A stretch of DNA of 64,000 nt from a bacterium (GTDB lineage: Bacteria > DRYD01), in the NCBI GenBank assembly GCA_030549815.1, contig JAUQQQ010000002.1:111232-175231 (forward strand). The letters are read 5' to 3'. Shown here one piece after another: positions 845 through 8,175 of the stretch. The position numbers and the translations under genes were made by a program. Every line of letters begins with the position of its first letter. The first letter of the stretch is position 1. The notes beneath the pieces are model-generated. The model was not told the DNA's origin. It worked only from the letters and a program-made list of their open reading frames with translations, and ran no database searches.

Positions 845-2833
845 ATGACTTTTGCAGCAACAATAGGAAGATATCAACTAAAAGAAGAAGTAGATAGCAC
901 CCCTTTAGGACAAATTTACCTTGCGTTTGATCCAATAGTTGATAGAGAAGTATATTTACGAATTTTAAGTCCATTTTTATTAGAAAATGATCAGCAAAGA
1001 GATACTCTTTTCAAGGAAGTTCAATTAGCAACTAAAATAAAACATCCCAATATAGCACAAATATACGAAATCCAAGAACAAGAGGGAATATATTTTGTAT
1101 CATTAGAAAAGGTAGAAGGAATTAAGATAGATGAGGTTTTTAAACCTTTAAAAAATCCAACCGAGAGTGATATCCATAAAATAACAGATTTATTCACTAA
1201 AATAGCTGAAGTATTGCAATATATACATGAGTACAATATAATCCACAAAGACCTAAAACCTAAAAATATACTGATACTTGGGGAAAATATAGAAAACATC
1301 AAAATATCGAACATAGCGTTTGGATATTTGGATAGTAATTTTCTTTTTCAGAGTAATCAGTTTTCTGATAAAATGATATTTTGGGCACCTGAACAAATAT
1401 CTAATCCTGATAATATTACAAAAAAGGCAGATATATTTTCATGGGCACTCCTTTTCTACTATTTTTTGACAGGAATTAATCCTTTTGTAAAAGATAGCAT
1501 TACTTTAACTTTAGAAGCAATACAAAAGGAACAGCATAAAAGTTTAAGCAAAGTTATTTCTTTTATTAATCCTTTGCTTTCTTCATTGATAGACAAGTGT
1601 CTTTCTAAGTCTATTGAAGACAGGCCAGAAAATTTCAGAGAAATAATAGATAATCTATATTCCATAAAAAAAGAAAACAAGAAATATCATCTTTCACCTG
1701 CCAAAGCAACCATGCATAACACACTCGGTACAAATTATTTCAAACAAGGTAATTTAGAATTAGCTATATTGGAATGGCAGAAAGCTGTTGATTATGATCC
1801 ATTTAATCCTCTTATTCACAATAATTTAGGAACAGCGTTTGACGGTGTTCAACATTTAAAAGAAGCATTAGAAGAATACAGAAAAGCTGTAGAATTAAGT
1901 CCAGCAAATTTCGTGGCACATTACAACTACGCCTCTGCATTATATAGAATTGGTGAAATAGAAAAATCTATTGAACATTACAGGAAAGTTGTGATGCTTA
2001 ATCCTAAATTTGCAGCAGGACATCACAACTTAGCAAATGCTCTGTATAAAAGAGGATTTACGGAAGAAGCAATAGAAAATTGGCAAAAAGCACTTGTAAT
2101 TAATCCCAATTTAGTTGAAGCAATGTATAATTTAGCCAATGCATATTTTTCTTTAGATAGAATTGAAGAAGCGGTACATTACTGGCAAAAAGTTATAGAA
2201 ATAGACCCTAACTTCGTTATGGCATATTATAGCTTAGCAATATATAATCTGGAAATAGGAGATTTAAACCAAGCAAACGAATATTTCAGTAAATGTATAG
2301 AAATAAACCCTAATTTTGCAGAAGCTTATTTCTATTTAGGTAATATATATTACAACTCATCAGATATATATACAGCGATAGATTATTGGCAAAAATGTGT
2401 TAGCCTAAAACCATCTTTTTGGAAAGCATACTACAATATAGGAAATGTCTATTACATTCAAGGCAATATAGAATTAGCATTGGATAATTGGAAAAAAACA
2501 GTTTTGTATAACCCCGATTTTTGGCAAGCACACTGGAATATAGCAAACGTAAGTTATTTTGAATTGGGAGATATAGATACAGCAATAATAGGTTGGCAAA
2601 AAGTAACAAATATTAATAGAAAACATTGGCAAGCACATCATAATTTAGGAGAAGCGTATTATGTCCAAGGAAAGTATAAATTAGCAATAATGGAGTGGGA
2701 AAGAGTAATAGAACTAAACCCTTATTTCTGGCCTGCTTATTTCAATATAGCTGTTATTTATTTCCAAAGTAAAGAATATTCAAAAGCAATACAATATTGG
2801 ACTAAAGCATTTGCAATAATGCTTTTTGGATAA
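845..2833 (+). CDS. Ser/Thr protein kinase-like domain fused to C-terminal TPR repeats (predicted pseudokinase)
   Basis: It has a kinase catalytic loop HKDLKPKNILI and WAPEQ (APE), followed by about 10 TPR repeats (WQKA..NP periodicity). The Gly-rich loop (LGQIYLAFD), the VAIK Lys (read as VYLRIL) and DFG (read as IAFGY) are degenerate. Confidence 0.7.
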   Translation: MTFAATIGRYQLKEEVDSTPLGQIYLAFDPIVDREVYLRILSPFLLENDQQRDTLFKEVQLATKIKHPNIAQIYEIQEQEGIYFVSLEKVEGIKIDEVFKPLKNPTESDIHKITDLFTKIAEVLQYIHEYNIIHKDLKPKNILILGENIENIKISNIAFGYLDSNFLFQSNQFSDKMIFWAPEQISNPDNITKKADIFSWALLFYYFLTGINPFVKDSITLTLEAIQKEQHKSLSKVISFINPLLSSLIDKCLSKSIEDRPENFREIIDNLYSIKKENKKYHLSPAKATMHNTLGTNYFKQGNLELAILEWQKAVDYDPFNPLIHNNLGTAFDGVQHLKEALEEYRKAVELSPANFVAHYNYASALYRIGEIEKSIEHYRKVVMLNPKFAAGHHNLANALYKRGFTEEAIENWQKALVINPNLVEAMYNLANAYFSLDRIEEAVHYWQKVIEIDPNFVMAYYSLAIYNLEIGDLNQANEYFSKCIEINPNFAEAYFYLGNIYYNSSDIYTAIDYWQKCVSLKPSFWKAYYNIGNVYYIQGNIELALDNWKKTVLYNPDFWQAHWNIANVSYFELGDIDTAIIGWQKVTNINRKHWQAHHNLGEAYYVQGKYKLAIMEWERVIELNPYFWPAYFNIAVIYFQSKEYSKAIQYWTKAFAIMLFG

Positions 2834-2835
2834 AT

Positions 2836-3750
2836 ATGATTAACACCTTCATTTATTCACTAAATAAAAATATTTTCAAATTGCTATCAATATATTTAAA
2901 AAAAGAATATAAAGAAAACATCGATACCCTATCTTTGCCAGTAGAAACTAATGAATTTCGAAAATTGATTAATCTGTTTAATCCACAAAAAATAACATAT
3001 GAAAACATTGTTTTTTATACAAAATCTTCAGAAAAATTCAAAGAAATGGTATCAAGTGATTTCAATATACTAATTTTTAATTCTAAGCAACAAATGGAGG
3101 AAGAAGCAAAAAGTATAAAAGAGAGAGATATTGAAATTATTAATAATTATTTAAATTCCAAAGCAATACAAAAAAATCCTGATCTAAAGCCCAAAATAGA
3201 GCAAATAACAACCTACATAAATAAATTCCCAAGTTTAAAAATTAGTGAATCAATACAAATAAATTCACAATATGAAGAAATAATAACTCTACTAAGTTTG
3301 ATATCAATTAAAAAAAATTTAATAATCGTTGATGAAGAAAAAGTAGAAGAAAATGAAACAATTGTTCTCTATTATCCTCTTTCGTTGTTAGTTGAAATAA
3401 ATGAATTGGAAGAAAACGACGCTAAAACTTTTCTTAGTTCTTTAAATCTATCAACAGATTTAGAAGAAGAAGTAGAAAAAATAGTAAAAAAAATAGTTGA
3501 TAGAATTTTATTACATTGGACCATATTCTATACAGGTAACAAAAAAGAAGTGAAAGAATATTTGGTACCTATAAACACTGATGTATTAAAAGCAAGTAGT
3601 AAAATACACACAGATATAGCCAAAAAATTCATACAAGCAGAAGTTTGCAACATTACTGAAATGGTAGATAATAAATTACCACCATTCAAAACATTCGGAA
3701 AAACATACATAGTTCAAAATCATGATTACCTATCAATAAAAACATCATAA
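2836..3750 (+). CDS. YchF/Ola1-like protein retaining the C-terminal TGS/DUF933 region but lacking the GTPase P-loop
   Basis: The C-terminus KIHTDIAKKFIQAEV...GKTYIVQNHDYLSIK aligns to YchF IHTDFEKGFIRAE...GKDYIVKDGDVM, and FYTGNKKEVKEYLVP matches YFTAGVKEVRAWTIP. There is no GxxxxGKS/T motif anywhere. The gene abuts the upstream kinase stop with a 2 nt gap. Confidence 0.45.
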   Translation: MINTFIYSLNKNIFKLLSIYLKKEYKENIDTLSLPVETNEFRKLINLFNPQKITYENIVFYTKSSEKFKEMVSSDFNILIFNSKQQMEEEAKSIKERDIEIINNYLNSKAIQKNPDLKPKIEQITTYINKFPSLKISESIQINSQYEEIITLLSLISIKKNLIIVDEEKVEENETIVLYYPLSLLVEINELEENDAKTFLSSLNLSTDLEEEVEKIVKKIVDRILLHWTIFYTGNKKEVKEYLVPINTDVLKASSKIHTDIAKKFIQAEVCNITEMVDNKLPPFKTFGKTYIVQNHDYLSIKTS

Positions 3751-3752
3751 AA

Positions 3753-4532
3753 ATGGATGGAGAAAAATTTCTACTTTGGAATTCAGAAGAATCCTCCATT
3801 CTTATAACCACGGGGAGGGGGCTCTCATCACAAGGGAAAGGGCTATCATCCCTAAAAGATAAAATCATTTTTACTCACAAGGGGAAAATAGAGATTGAAA
3901 ACTTAGAGTATGGAGATACCATTTTTTCGACGCAATCAAAAAAATATTTTGTTTTAAAACCTACAAATGAAGATATAAATTCAAAAATAACAAGAAAAAC
4001 TAATACGTTTGTAATAAAAGATTTAAGTATGATTTTGAGCTATACTTCAGTAAACAAGTTTTCGAAAGTTTTAGAGATAGGAGTAGGTAGTGGTGCTTGT
4101 AATATTTTCCTTTCAAATTTTGTTAATAAAGTAGTTTCAATAGATATAGATATAAACAATCTTAGAATTTCCAAAGAAAATATAATAAAATACGGGAATA
4201 GTAGGGATTCATTTTTGATTTTATCGAATGAAAAGTTGATTTCTTTTAAAAAAGAATCATTTGATTGTATTGTTATCGATATTCCCGAGCCAGAGATATA
4301 TGTAGATCTGTGTTATGATGTTTTGAAATTTGGTGGTGATTTGGTTTTTGCTGTTCCAAATATAGAGCAAGTGAAAAGAGCAAGGGAAGTTTTTTCTAAA
4401 CATAAATTCGTTTATTTCAGGACAATAGAAGTATGGGTAAGAAAGTGGTTAGTAAGACCGAATTACAGCAGACCACACCATGAAATGCAAGCACACTCAA
4501 TGTTCTTTACTTTCTGCAAAAAAATAAAATGA
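3753..4532 (+). CDS. trmI: tRNA (adenine-N1)-methyltransferase, TrmI/Gcd14 family
   Basis: SAM motif VLEIGVGSGA. Overall N- and C-terminal collinearity with TrmI (the ..IEVWVRKWLVRP..HSMFFTFCKK tail). 259 aa. Confidence 0.8.
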   Translation: MDGEKFLLWNSEESSILITTGRGLSSQGKGLSSLKDKIIFTHKGKIEIENLEYGDTIFSTQSKKYFVLKPTNEDINSKITRKTNTFVIKDLSMILSYTSVNKFSKVLEIGVGSGACNIFLSNFVNKVVSIDIDINNLRISKENIIKYGNSRDSFLILSNEKLISFKKESFDCIVIDIPEPEIYVDLCYDVLKFGGDLVFAVPNIEQVKRAREVFSKHKFVYFRTIEVWVRKWLVRPNYSRPHHEMQAHSMFFTFCKKIK

Positions 4533-5152
4533 ACATAATTGAAATAGAGGACCTATCTTTTTCATATAAAGATAAACCAATTTTTGAAAAATTATCAGTT
4601 AGAATACCTAATAATTCAATTAATTTTTTAATCGGTACTAACGGAAGCGGAAAAACTACATTTCTTAAAATCCTTTTCTTCAACAATAAAAAATACTTAA
4701 AAACAGATGATTTTCAATTCATATGGGAATTTCAAAATTTATACGAAGAATTAACAGTTCTACAAAATTTTAAAATCTTTTTCCATCTTAACAAAAAGAA
4801 AAATTTGGAATTTGAAAAAGAATTAGGAAAAATACTGAAATACTTTAATATTAAAGAATACTTAAACAAAGAAGTAAAAAAGTTATCCTATGGTTACAAG
4901 CAAAGAGTTTTAATAGCAAGGTCAATAATGATTAATCCAAAGCTATTAATTATAGATGAGCCTTTTTTAGGTTTAGATTATTCTTCTTATCTTTCTTTTC
5001 TAAAAATCATCAATGATTACAATGAAAACACTACGTTTTTAATATCTACACAAAACCCAAATACTAAAACAGAATTCCTAAATATTTTTCAAAGACAAGA
5101 AAAAAATAAAATAAACCTTAACGAACAAATTACACTTTTCACAATATTATGA
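4529..5152 (+). CDS. ABC-type ATPase (stand-alone nucleotide-binding protein)
   Basis: Walker A GTNGSGKTT, Q-loop LTVLQN, signature-like LSYGYKQRV and Walker B LLIIDEP. The start overlaps the trmI stop as ATGA. No permease gene is adjacent. Confidence 0.75.
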   Translation: MNIIEIEDLSFSYKDKPIFEKLSVRIPNNSINFLIGTNGSGKTTFLKILFFNNKKYLKTDDFQFIWEFQNLYEELTVLQNFKIFFHLNKKKNLEFEKELGKILKYFNIKEYLNKEVKKLSYGYKQRVLIARSIMINPKLLIIDEPFLGLDYSSYLSFLKIINDYNENTTFLISTQNPNTKTEFLNIFQRQEKNKINLNEQITLFTIL

Positions 5153-6921
5153 AAGTGGAAAAGAGAACACTTTTTGAATACAAGCAACAGAATGATTTTT
5201 TGAATAAACTTAATGAAGTCCAAAGAATAGCGGTAGAAAGCCCAATTAAGCAACAATTGGTATTGGCTGGCCCTGGAACAGGAAAAACAACCGTAATAAC
5301 ATTCAAAACAATTTTTTTACTTTTAAATAATAACATAAATCCTGAAAAACTATTAATTCTTACCTTTACCAACAAAGCAGCAGATGAAATGATAAGAAGA
5401 ATAAAGCAATATACAAATCAAAAAATACCCTACATAGGAACTTTTCACTCTGTCATAATCAAAATATTGAGAGAAAATTTACCTATAAAAACAACCCAAT
5501 ATTCAATAAATGATAAAATAAACATAGTTGATGAGGAAGAAAAAATCGAAATCATCAAAAACATTTTATCAAAAAATAAAAACAAAAAGAAACATAGCCC
5601 TTATATGATCTCAAACATTATATCTTCGATAAAAAATGGAATACCAGTAAAGGTAAAAAATGATGAAATTGAAGAAATAATTTTTGAATACAACCACTTT
5701 TTAAAGAAGATAAATTCACTCGATTTTGATGATATTATCCTTTGTATGAACAATTTGTTAACCGAAAACAAAAAAACAAAAGAAAAAATTTCTAACAAAT
5801 TCGATTATGTAATTATTGATGAATTTCAAGATATAAACAAAACTCAGTTTGAATTTGTATATCATATAACTGGAAGAGAAAAGGCAATATTTGCAGTAGG
5901 TGACGATGATCAAAGTATATACCGATTCAGAAATTCAGACGTAGAAATAATGCTAAATTTTAAGAAATACTATCCTGAATCAGAACTAATAATATTAAAA
6001 TACAATTATCGATCAGGTTCTAAGATAATAAAAACTTGTAGCCAGTTAATATCTTTTAATATTAATAGATTTGAAAAAAATATCCTTCCTTTTTATTCAA
6101 AAAATGATGAGGTTGAAATCAGGATTTTTAAGGACGAAGAAAATGAATTCGATTATATAGCTCAAAAAATTAATGAAAATAAAGATAAGCATATTGCTGT
6201 TTTATGTAGAACAAATGATGTAGGCAAGGAAATAGAAAAAAACCTTATAAAAAGAGGAATAAACGCAAAATTCGTAGGTAACTATGATTTTTTCGAAAGA
6301 AAAGAAGTAAAAGATATTATCGCTTTCCTTAAAGTTATTAATAATCCTAAAGATGACCTGAACTTAATTAGAATCCTTAAAAATTATTTCAAACTAAAAA
6401 AATCGGAACTAAATAAAATAATTGCTAAAATGGAAGAAAAAAATGTAATAGATGTCCTTGAAGAGGAGAATTTTGAAATATACACAAAAATAAATGAACT
6501 AATCAAAAAACAAAATAAAAGCGTTGATACTGTACTTGAAAAAATTATTGAACTAACAGAAAAAAATGAGATAAATGAAACTTTTTTAAGCTTTGTTAAC
6601 AACTTTTGCAAAAACAATGAAAAAAATGACGTTGAATCATTTCTAAATTACATAACACTTATAAGAATGAACAATGAGCAAAAAGTGGAGAAGAAAAATA
6701 AAGTATGGATAATGACAATGCATTCTTCTAAAGGTTTGGAATTTGAAGTAGTTTTTGTTTGTAGAGTTAAACAAGGAGTAATACCACATTTCAAAACAAG
6801 CGATGATGAAAAAGAGGAAGAGCGAAGGCTATTGTATGTTGCTCTTTCTAGGGCTAAGGAAAAACTATATATAACCACTCCAGTACCTCCCTCAGAATTT
6901 ATTATTCCACTCCTAAATTGA
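5149..6921 (+). CDS. UvrD/PcrA/Rep-family SF1 DNA helicase
   Basis: GPGTGKTT (motif I), VIIDEFQD (motif II), NYRSGSKI (motif IV), MTMHSSKGLEFEVVF and RRLLYVALSRAKEKLYI (motifs V/VI). The start overlaps the ABC ATPase stop by 4 nt. Confidence 0.8.
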   Translation: MKVEKRTLFEYKQQNDFLNKLNEVQRIAVESPIKQQLVLAGPGTGKTTVITFKTIFLLLNNNINPEKLLILTFTNKAADEMIRRIKQYTNQKIPYIGTFHSVIIKILRENLPIKTTQYSINDKINIVDEEEKIEIIKNILSKNKNKKKHSPYMISNIISSIKNGIPVKVKNDEIEEIIFEYNHFLKKINSLDFDDIILCMNNLLTENKKTKEKISNKFDYVIIDEFQDINKTQFEFVYHITGREKAIFAVGDDDQSIYRFRNSDVEIMLNFKKYYPESELIILKYNYRSGSKIIKTCSQLISFNINRFEKNILPFYSKNDEVEIRIFKDEENEFDYIAQKINENKDKHIAVLCRTNDVGKEIEKNLIKRGINAKFVGNYDFFERKEVKDIIAFLKVINNPKDDLNLIRILKNYFKLKKSELNKIIAKMEEKNVIDVLEEENFEIYTKINELIKKQNKSVDTVLEKIIELTEKNEINETFLSFVNNFCKNNEKNDVESFLNYITLIRMNNEQKVEKKNKVWIMTMHSSKGLEFEVVFVCRVKQGVIPHFKTSDDEKEEERRLLYVALSRAKEKLYITTPVPPSEFIIPLLN

Positions 6922-6957: not shown

Positions 6958-8175
6958 TTGATTATGATAAATTACATTTTGTTTTCAATATTTGTCCTAA
7001 TAACGTTTGCTTTAGCATTTTTTACAATAAAAGCTGAAAAAAATAAATTCCAAATAATAAAACATTCAAAAACAATATTATCTATTATCTCTGTCTATTT
7101 TGGCTTTTTTTTACTTATAATTTTTTACTCCATTTTTTCAGGAAAAATATACAATATGCTGGGAATAGATTTTGTAGGTGGAACTCTTACTGAAATAAAA
7201 ATTCCCAAAAACATTACTGATACCGATTTATCAAATATTTATAAAAAATATAATATGGAAATAACAATTCAAGACGTAATTCTGCAAGAACAAGAGAAAG
7301 ATAAAAGAACAATAGTAATAAAGACAAAACCAATGGATGAAAAACAAAAAAATGAAATATTAAAAGAACTAAAAAATATGGGTGCAGAGATAAGAAAAAC
7401 TGAAAATATCAGTGCAACAATAGGAAAAGAAACATTGATAAATGCCCTAATAGCACTCATAATTGCATTAATTGCTCAAGTTATTTATATAGCATTTAGA
7501 TTCGGAAACAATATAATGTACGGAATTATTGCAGATATAGGACTAATACATGATGTTGTTATCATGTTAGGCGTTTATGTTATACTTGGAATGCTTGGTT
7601 TTGCTGGTTTTGAAATAAACAGTATTTTCTTAGCTGCGGTCCTTACAGTAGTAGGATATTCAGTAATGGATACAATCATAATTTTCGACAGAATTAGAGA
7701 AAACCTAAGAATAGAGTTAAAGAAAAATCAAAAAATTTCGTTAGATGAGTTCGACAATTTAATAAATAATTCTATTATTCAAACAATCGTTAGGTCAGTT
7801 TTCACTACTTTCACAGTTTTACTAACATTGTGGGGTATAGTTTTTTTAGGTGGAGAAACATTAAGAAGTTTTGCAATAGCTTTATCAGTAGGAACATTTA
7901 GTGGAGCTTTTTCTTCAATATTTATTGCAGCACCATTGGTTTCAATCTTTAAAGAAAAAATTCTTTCCAAAGATATCAAATTAATAACTGAAGAAGGGGA
8001 ACCTGAGAAAACCAAAGCTTTAGCCCAAAACATAATGCAAATCTTTGCACATCAACAAGAAAATCCCGAAGAAATCCAAGAAGAAGTAAAAAATATAGAA
8101 GTTAAACAAGACCCAAAAAGCATAAGAAATAAATATCTCAGAACCAAATTAATTAGAAAAGAAAAAAATCAATGA
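6958..8175 (+). CDS. secF: protein translocase subunit SecF-like (SecD/SecF family) with a charged C-terminal extension
   Basis: GIDFVGGT motif, a conserved RFG..IHDV..block and TVVGYSVMDTIIIFDRIREN. The protein is predicted to be polytopic. Confidence 0.6.
   Translation: MIMINYILFSIFVLITFALAFFTIKAEKNKFQIIKHSKTILSIISVYFGFFLLIIFYSIFSGKIYNMLGIDFVGGTLTEIKIPKNITDTDLSNIYKKYNMEITIQDVILQEQEKDKRTIVIKTKPMDEKQKNEILKELKNMGAEIRKTENISATIGKETLINALIALIIALIAQVIYIAFRFGNNIMYGIIADIGLIHDVVIMLGVYVILGMLGFAGFEINSIFLAAVLTVVGYSVMDTIIIFDRIRENLRIELKKNQKISLDEFDNLINNSIIQTIVRSVFTTFTVLLTLWGIVFLGGETLRSFAIALSVGTFSGAFSSIFIAAPLVSIFKEKILSKDIKLITEEGEPEKTKALAQNIMQIFAHQQENPEEIQEEVKNIEVKQDPKSIRNKYLRTKLIRKEKNQ

Follow-up and report, generated by a model that had tools for sequence, protein, structure and literature searches.

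The bacterial DNA analyzed here, a 64,000-nucleotide stretch that we refer to as the window (GenBank assembly GCA_030549815.1, contig JAUQQQ010000002.1, positions 111,232 to 175,231), carries on its plus strand two adjacent genes whose products belong to well-known enzyme families and have both lost catalytic motifs of those families. The first (positions 845–2833) encodes a 662-residue protein kinase-like domain joined to tetratricopeptide repeats (kinase-TPR), and the second (2836–3750) encodes a 304-residue relative of YchF, which we call pseudo-YchF; only 2 nucleotides (nt) separate them (2834–2835; the junction reads TAA-AT-ATG). The pair is strictly conserved, restricted to one lineage of hot-spring bacteria and kept by strong purifying selection. 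We put the probability at a little better than even (roughly 0.55) that it is a vertically inherited module of two pseudoenzymes whose products work as a partner-regulated complex that docks on the ribosome. The pairing itself appears to be real, conserved and previously undescribed, a variant of two well-known families. An initial annotation of this DNA, which gave exactly these open reading frames (ORFs), lengths, strand and spacing, had described the pair as decayed, signaling-type proteins; the motif loss and the folds behind that description are supported below, and its words "dead" and "scaffold" are ones that we use conditionally.

The second gene encodes a predicted compacted YchF

The identification of the 304-residue protein as YchF-like, with a coiled-coil insert and a TGS/DUF933 tail, is upheld by profile and structure comparisons. 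Pfam YchF-GTPase_C (PF06071) matches residues 230–302 with 46 bits against a cut-off of 27 (E=5.9e-12), and phmmer against PDB sequences finds the E. coli (8kie_y) and H. influenzae YchF proteins over the last ~120 residues; the TIGR00092 YchF equivalog model gives 36.4 bits, below its cut-off of 279.2. The initial annotation had also held that the protein is collinear with only the C-terminal two-thirds of YchF, and this does not stand: hhalign, run with a 15-member family profile, aligned residues 12–304 to residues 17–362 of canonical YchF with 98–99% probability, and tblastn with a P-loop-bearing short YchF-like protein covered residues 8–302 (E=3e-22). The AlphaFold2 (AF2) model has a predicted local distance difference test score (pLDDT) of 93.3 and a predicted template modeling score (pTM) of 0.90, and its 15 best PDB matches in Foldseek are all full-length YchF/OLA1 structures, with ~360–370 aligned columns, E values of 1e-17 to 1e-14 and template modeling (TM) scores of 0.60–0.68 normalised to the query. 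The model thus points to a YchF of full length that has been compacted and whose G-like domain is degenerate.

What is left of the G-type domain is a shrunken half-domain in the N-terminal ~80 residues. As the initial annotation had claimed, the G1–G3 motifs are absent (no GxxxxGK[ST], FPFxT or DxxG), and the predicted structure, which it had proposed as a check, keeps the fold and lacks the Walker A loop. At the former Walker A/P-loop site (2854–2871, plus strand), DSSP analysis of the model gives strand beta1 (residues 2–7), an S-L-N loop and helix alpha1 (residues 11–21), the connecting loop being 3 residues long versus the eight-residue Walker A of canonical YchF; GK[ST] is missing from all 15 family members in both the alignment and a regular-expression screen. 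In the hhalign register, KKEYKEN replaces switch I (FPFCT), V-D-E-E takes the place of the G4 motif N-V-D-E, and F60-Y-T-K63 (3013–3024) stands for F-V-D-I-A-G at the G3/Walker B strand, with loss of the Asp; F60, Y61 and K63 are invariant in the family. Neither hhalign nor the regular-expression screen found a G2 FPFxT, G3 DxxG or G4 N[MLV]xE motif in the protein. Stripped of G1–G4, pseudo-YchF would therefore not be expected to bind or hydrolyze ATP in the canonical manner.

The other two parts of YchF are retained. The helical (coiled-coil) insert spans residues ~84–153 (3085–3294), with model helices at residues 84–106 and 117–130 and a basic tip made up of S108, K/R109, K113, K118 and K120 (nt 3157–3195), of which S108 and K113 are invariant and K/R109 is conserved. 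The TGS/YchF_C (DUF933) domain, located by PF06071 and by the phmmer match to 8kie_y, covers residues 227–304 (3514–3747), and its motifs IFYTGNKKEVK and KIHTDIAKKFIQAEV are conserved in the family. In E. coli, YchF docks at uL14/bL19/H62 of the 50S subunit, chiefly via the basic tip of its helical domain, with K149/152/156/159 contacting helix H62 of 23S rRNA; the structure of the complex was determined with YchF(H114A) (PMC11814078). The match between those lysines and the basic tip of pseudo-YchF is a putative one, judged from the sequence and secondary-structure register alone.

The kinase-like domain lacks canonical catalytic residues

The product of the first gene, recognized from the ORF listing and from Pfam Pkinase and TPR families, consists of a PknB-type kinase-like domain (residues 1–285), ten TPRs (residues ~286–655) and a conserved hydrophobic tail, ...AFAIMLFG. 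Pkinase scores 103.4 bits against a cut-off of 31.7, and TPR_1/TPR_2 match in ten stretches, the approximate number that the initial annotation had counted. An AF2 model of residues 1–290, built with active homologs, has a pLDDT of 88.6 and a pTM of 0.87, and Foldseek places PknB, PknA and Stk1 as its best PDB matches (E~1e-18, TM 0.7–0.82) and thus as the Hanks-type folds nearest to it.

To assign the motif register we used an alignment with 17 active bacterial kinases plus PknB, whose reference sequence aligned cleanly; conservation was read from 10 full-length orthologs taken from related contigs, which are 67–85% identical to the window protein. Where the Gly-rich loop GxGxxGxV would be expected, the protein has D17-S-T-P-L-G-Q-I24 (893–916), so that in D17-S-T-P-L-G22 the third Gly of GxGxxG alone remains, and D17, S18 and P20–I24 are invariant across the orthologs. 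The beta3 VAIK Lys, a lysine in every active homolog aligned, is R39 (959–961), again in 10/10 orthologs. The alphaC Glu58 is present and kept in the orthologs. The catalytic loop, H134-K-D136-L-K-P-K-N141 (1244–1267), retains its D, K and N, with Lys for the HRD Arg; D136, K138 and N141 are invariant and the His varies (H/C/F). The former DFG motif reads N156-I-A-F-G160 (1310–1324), with the metal-binding Asp changed to Asn at a place where active homologs have a nearly invariant D/F at positions 156/157; N156, A158, F159 and G160 are invariant. Also kept are A181-P-E (invariant in the orthologs), the alphaF Asp196 and Arg260.

The alignment accordingly agrees with the initial annotation on the retention of HKDLKPKN and APE and on the replacement of the Gly-rich loop and the beta3 Lys. 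It had the DFG Asp lost as well, which is right in that no Asp is there, but its reading of "IAFG" (D→A) was shifted in register, the Asp column being N156. A published rule calls a protein a pseudokinase when at least one of VAIK-Lys, HRD-Asp and DFG-Asp is missing (bioRxiv 10.1101/2025.01.12.632604), and by that rule the window protein is one, the K→R and D→N changes, like the loss of the Gly-rich loop, being conserved in the 10 orthologs.

The pair is conserved while its neighbors change

In a scan of one genome per GTDB species, pseudo-YchF was found in 8 species-level metagenome-assembled genomes, two of them labeled Candidatus Calescibacterium sp. and one "Deltaproteobacteria bacterium". 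The kinase-TPR gene lies directly upstream on the same strand in all 8, although on the shortest of these contigs only its last 208 codons are present. A second scan, of Joint Genome Institute metagenomes with the kinase-TPR protein as the query, found pseudo-YchF directly downstream in 6/6 contigs that reach past the kinase-TPR gene. The spacer is 2–3 nt long in L001 and L003 and reaches ~136 nt in L012, and no ORF intervenes. Genomes that carry the pair include GCA_025059235.1, GCA_039630415.1 and GCA_017880035.1. The closest named relatives of the 304-residue protein are annotated [quoted passage not shown], from a genus of the candidate phylum Calescibacteriota, and the GC content at the locus is ~29%.

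The flanks fall into two arrangements. In subclade A, truD–dapA lie upstream of the pair and a methyltransferase gene and an ABC gene downstream; in subclade B, a retron-type reverse transcriptase gene and a 319-residue ORF lie upstream and tpiA and dprA downstream. The kinase/YchF pair is thus a conserved unit, kept across both subclades while its neighbors change. The initial annotation had placed it in an operon with trmI, an ABC ATPase and a UvrD-like helicase gene: the run is indeed co-directional and tightly packed, but what is conserved is the pair alone. The methyltransferase and ABC genes adjoin it only in subclade A, and a UvrD-like match is found in no related locus and stands beside the pair only in the window; other genes follow the ABC gene in L001 and L003, while L007, L008 and L010 end shortly after it and are therefore uninformative on this point. 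We rejected the larger operon as a functional unit, given its absence from subclade B.

Both genes are under strong purifying selection

Ratios of nonsynonymous to synonymous substitution (dN/dS) were estimated at the codon level from unsaturated ortholog pairs (dS 0.3–0.7). For pseudo-YchF they are 0.07–0.08 over the whole protein, 0.03–0.10 in the degenerate G-like domain and 0.05–0.08 in the TGS domain (0.04–0.08 over all pairs with usable dS). The pseudokinase domain gives 0.03–0.07, and the TPR array, which with the C-terminal tail occupies positions 1700–2830 and is the most constrained part of the pair, gives 0.01 for the array in these pairs and 0.01–0.03 as the wider range for array plus tail. 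Both genes are therefore functional and under strong purifying selection (dN/dS 0.01–0.10). Between subclades A and B, the pseudokinase-TPR proteins are 67–69% identical, the radical-SAM enzyme of the same genomes being 73% identical.

A pseudogene or a mis-called start could also have produced a YchF lacking its P-loop. Both were rejected: the start codon used is the first to follow a stop, leaving no possible in-frame upstream extension, and all orthologs begin M-I/L-N/K-x-F, so that this is not a truncated gene call, and the G-like domain is itself under the constraint given above.

The pseudokinase has an active relative

A metagenome contig of 36% GC (L035; Ga0123519_10005898) encodes a 659-residue kinase-TPR homolog that resembles the window protein in length, architecture, TPR array and tail and differs from it in having active kinase motifs. 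Across 375 residues its TPR array matches that of the window protein at 52% identity with zero gaps, and its C-terminus, ...LALMLFG, shares with the window protein a tail of the form ...A(I/L)MLFG. The kinase domain is 29% identical, scores 188 bits with Pkinase versus 103, and has every catalytic motif intact (GRGGMG, VAVK, HRDVKPAN, DFG and SPE). No YchF-like neighbor was found on the contig; downstream come a MauE/DoxX gene, in convergent orientation, and one for a rhodanese. The matching array and tail, together with the intact kinase, argue that the window protein descends from an active kinase-TPR family, and since the L035 homolog is intact and has no YchF-like neighbor, the decay of the kinase is lineage-specific. 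The pseudo-YchF partner appears together with this loss of catalytic residues.

The L035 homolog also differs from the window protein in its upstream neighbors: its gene (within 1154–5974) follows a ClpB/ClpC-like AAA+ gene (797 residues) and a 108-residue FHA-domain gene. The conserved TPR platform may originally have belonged to a phospho-signaling and chaperone context.

Pseudo-YchF among YchF homologs

Searching 1.84 billion cluster representatives with the pseudo-YchF family profile in HMMER returned only three clusters (at 50% identity) with E<1e-30, one of them a fragment. The next matches (E 1e-19 and weaker) are not canonical YchFs but proteins of 310–345 residues that are annotated "DUF933 domain-containing" and come from Omnitrophota, Caldisericia and further uncultivated groups; many of these proteins align nearly full-length (E 1e-19 to 1e-15). 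GxxxxGK[ST] is kept in 106/125 full-length matches to the profile, and most of the short DUF933 proteins keep Walker A and lack the YchF-specific switch I and G3. They are thus like pseudo-YchF in missing the canonical switch I and G3 and, in four cases (P0039, P0041, P0045 and P0101), in a P-loop that has degraded independently; they differ from it in that the P-loop is mostly intact and in that the one whose surroundings were checked, the P-loop-less P0041, has PmbA/TldD genes upstream and no kinase neighbor. P0041 thus marks the pairing with a kinase as a specific feature of the present lineage. A rough neighbor-joining tree with no support values places the pseudo-YchF family as a long-branch clade outside the canonical YchF cluster.

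Taken by themselves, the short DUF933 proteins (P0035–P0181) form a large and poorly annotated YchF-like group. Two other matches have unusual architectures: P0172 joins a ribosomal protein bS6 domain (residues 4–91) to the helical and TGS part of YchF, with no G domain, and P0136 combines YchF_C with an Arg-tRNA-synthetase-N-like segment. Both may be real YchF fusions devoid of a G domain, or chimeras created by gene calling.

The initial annotation had also raised the question of a canonical ychF elsewhere in the genome; within the 64-kb window, tblastn with canonical YchFs found pseudo-YchF as the sole match. The best-scoring canonical YchF of the profile search (P0044) and its relatives were considered as the canonical YchF of this lineage and rejected, because the Rho on their contigs is only 51% identical to the window's Rho, and the NDK 37–39% identical to the NDKs of four related loci, which places those contigs in another organism. 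One of these relatives (P0235, on L015) shares ENA record ERZ6863514 with a pseudo-YchF contig (L021); the record is evidently a mixed assembly, and the shared sample accession is no evidence of one genome.

Comparison with known systems

Like YchF/OLA1 (TIGR00092; 1JAL, 2OHF, 5EE9, 8KIE), pseudo-YchF is built from three parts: a domain of G type, a coiled-coil insert and TGS/YchF_C at the C-terminus. Its TGS motifs (KIHTD..F..AEV) are conserved, and its helical insert has a putatively corresponding basic tip. Unlike YchF/OLA1, it has no Walker A, FPFxT, DxxG or NxxE, is ~60 residues shorter and is always paired with a pseudokinase-TPR gene. Eukaryotic pseudoGTPases such as CENP-M and the pseudoGTPase domains of p190RhoGAP likewise have a G-domain fold without nucleotide motifs and serve as interaction modules, but they belong to another superfamily context. 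Our search of the literature found nothing relevant on a P-loop-less YchF, a YchF-derived pseudoGTPase or a DUF933 paralog, and no bacterial pseudoGTPase.

On the kinase side, C-terminal TPRs are a recurrent architecture of bacterial Ser/Thr kinases (bioRxiv 10.1101/2025.01.12.632604), and the PknG, GN-NS1, Myxo1 and Strep1/2 kinase-TPR families are, unlike the window protein, catalytically canonical. Among bacterial pseudokinases, the beta3 Lys→Arg change is shared with DYD and ActPs2 (O'Boyle et al. 2025), but DYD proteins lack the alphaC Glu, have a DYD motif and are membrane-associated, and ActPs1–3 and GLW lack the HRD Asp in 97–100% of members. CP1 goes with COG3899 and related domains; DLHK members have four other C-terminal domains. 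None of ActPs1–3, GLW, CP1, DYD and DLHK is described with TPRs or with a YchF-like partner, and by the published descriptions the pattern in the window protein (K→R, alphaC Glu and HRD Asp kept, DFG D→N, TPRs) matches none of these seven families.

Proposed function and alternatives

In the scheme that we favor, the Gly-rich loop, beta3 Lys and DFG Asp of an active Ser/Thr kinase-TPR ancestor would have disappeared while its fold and the APE and alphaF elements were kept, and a YchF would have had its G domain compacted and G1–G4 removed, with the basic-tipped helical insert and the TGS domain preserved. The two products would then form a non-catalytic complex: pseudo-YchF would dock on RNA or the ribosome independently of nucleotide, by analogy with the uL14/bL19/H62 site of YchF on the 50S subunit, and the pseudokinase-TPR would supply a protein-binding platform and set the availability of pseudo-YchF. 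Partner-dependent regulation would in this way replace the ATP-dependent cycle of canonical YchF, and the highly constrained TPR array would be an ancient binding platform common to active relatives such as the L035 kinase, with which it would be expected to share binding partners. We infer the loss of catalysis, the physical interaction and the ribosome association, and the likeliest function would be that of a nucleotide-independent scaffold, possibly one that docks on the 50S subunit.

Several points weigh against this scheme. The adjacency could reflect co-regulation only. Pseudo-YchF is only 43% identical between the subclades, a much faster evolution than that of its partner. D136 and N141 are invariant, although a purely structural pseudokinase would place no constraint on them, and K→R and D→N are conservative changes that may leave room for nucleotide binding or atypical activity. 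Conservation of the basic tip is seen at the level of sequence, and P0041, which has no kinase beside it, indicates that loss of the P-loop does not by itself require a kinase partner. A coexisting canonical YchF would also change the interpretation, making pseudo-YchF a competitor of an active paralog rather than a replacement. The opposite case, in which pseudo-YchF is the sole YchF of the lineage, a near-universal, translation-associated ATPase turned nucleotide-free adaptor that an obligate pseudokinase-TPR controls within a ribosome-regulatory complex, seems to us rather improbable.

The main rival explanation, although an unlikely one, is that the kinase domain is an atypical active enzyme or a nucleotide sensor, still binding nucleotide or acting through R39 and N156, with pseudo-YchF as its dedicated substrate, activator or effector. 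K→R and D→N are, as is generally known for kinases, classical kinase-dead substitutions, and here the VAIK Lys, the DFG Asp and the Gly-rich loop (with a Pro now in it) are all gone together; because the nearest homolog outside the lineage, that of L035, keeps all of these motifs, the changes are a derived loss. Such a loss has nevertheless left D136, K138, N141, the alphaC Glu58 and APE invariant in all orthologs and the dN/dS of the kinase domain very low, and published modeling suggests that ATP binding may persist in DYD and ActPs2, bacterial pseudokinases whose beta3 residue is Arg (PMC12599244; bioRxiv 10.1101/2025.01.12.632604).

It is quite unlikely that the two genes are functionally unrelated, their adjacency being an inherited accident in a small, slowly rearranging genome and each protein acting alone, pseudo-YchF serving, for instance, as the divergent YchF of the lineage and the TPR protein as a scaffold in its own right. 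Their evolutionary rates are strongly different, the length of the spacer varies, and phylogenetic independence is limited because the ~8 species-level genomes come from one lineage. However, gene order on either side was rearranged between subclades A and B around a pair that stayed intact, co-directional and free of intervening ORFs; moreover, the active kinase-TPR homolog has no YchF-like neighbor and P0041 no kinase, so that the pairing coincides with the decay of both proteins.

That the cluster is part of an anti-phage defense island, as a MADS-like or PD-T4-6-like kinase system, is very improbable: PADLOC does match the kinase to PD-T4-6 (157 bits) and mad6 (112 bits), the methyltransferase to mad2, the ABC ATPase to mad3 and the helicase to GajB/RTasHel, and there are a retron-type reverse transcriptase gene beside the pair in subclade B and HEPN and PDDEXK genes nearby in L001, but these matches cover generic catalytic domains only, NCBIfam MAD6 scores 87.6 against a cut-off of 460, pseudo-YchF gives no PADLOC match of any kind, subclade B lacks the linkage of the pair to methyltransferase, ABC and helicase genes, the constraint on the kinase-TPR protein between subclades is housekeeping-like when set against that on the radical-SAM enzyme, and a defense kinase would need catalysis. 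MADS also needs MAD6–8 plus an N6-methyltransferase with a specificity subunit, and no required partner was seen among the screened neighbors, the ABC ATPase giving a weak mad8 match among its generic ATPase matches. MADS, PD-T4-6 and Gabija-like defense were accordingly rejected as similarity at the domain level only.

Implications

Few nucleoside triphosphatases (NTPases) are conserved as widely as YchF/OLA1, which nearly all cells have and whose molecular role is debated; a full-length YchF without a nucleotide pocket that is under strong purifying selection would show which of the functions of YchF are independent of ATP. Bacterial pseudokinases, for their part, are almost unexplored experimentally, and the present one, which has a recognizable active relative, a highly constrained TPR platform and a candidate partner strictly linked to it, offers a defined two-protein system in which to ask what such a protein does. 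The impact is limited in that the lineage is small and uncultured and the function a proposal; interest would rise considerably if the lineage proved to have no other YchF or if the complex were demonstrated on the ribosome.

Neighboring genes

In the window, dapA (65–820) lies upstream of the kinase-TPR gene and is co-directional with it. Downstream, on the same strand as the pair and with overlaps or tiny gaps, follow genes for a class I S-adenosylmethionine-dependent methyltransferase (3753–4532), a short ABC-type ATPase of 207 residues (4529–5152) and, from profile matches, a UvrD/PcrA-like helicase of 590 residues (5149–6921); a SecD/SecF-type gene (6958–8175, plus strand) also belongs to the co-directional run. 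The methyltransferase is GCD14/TrmI- or PCMT-like (GCD14 52 bits, PCMT 30 bits), and the name trmI is only moderately supported.

The ABC ATPase has intact Walker A and B motifs, LSYGYKQ in the window (LSYGY[KR]Q more generally) versus the LSGGQ signature, and Gln in place of the H-loop His. No permease gene adjoins it at the locus. The atypical signature and the H-loop Gln are kept in its orthologs (L001 11649–12284, L003 9674–10327, L021 2282–2950), and it is a candidate for a third NTPase in this gene run whose catalytic machinery has been altered. The helicase is shorter than PcrA and scores ~270 bits against the PADLOC GajB and RTasHel models; its position right after an ABC-type ATPase gives a loose likeness to Gabija, but that ATPase has only 207 residues and no Toprim domain.

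In subclade B, the stretch immediately upstream of the pair (L004 3607–5806, L005/L006 3630–5791) holds the reverse transcriptase gene, which matches RVT_1 and the PADLOC retron-type model RT_XIII (173 bits), and the divergent 319-residue ORF, which has no Pfam or PADLOC match. Two of these contigs (L005 and L006) carry a stand-alone protein kinase gene of 247–253 residues nearby.

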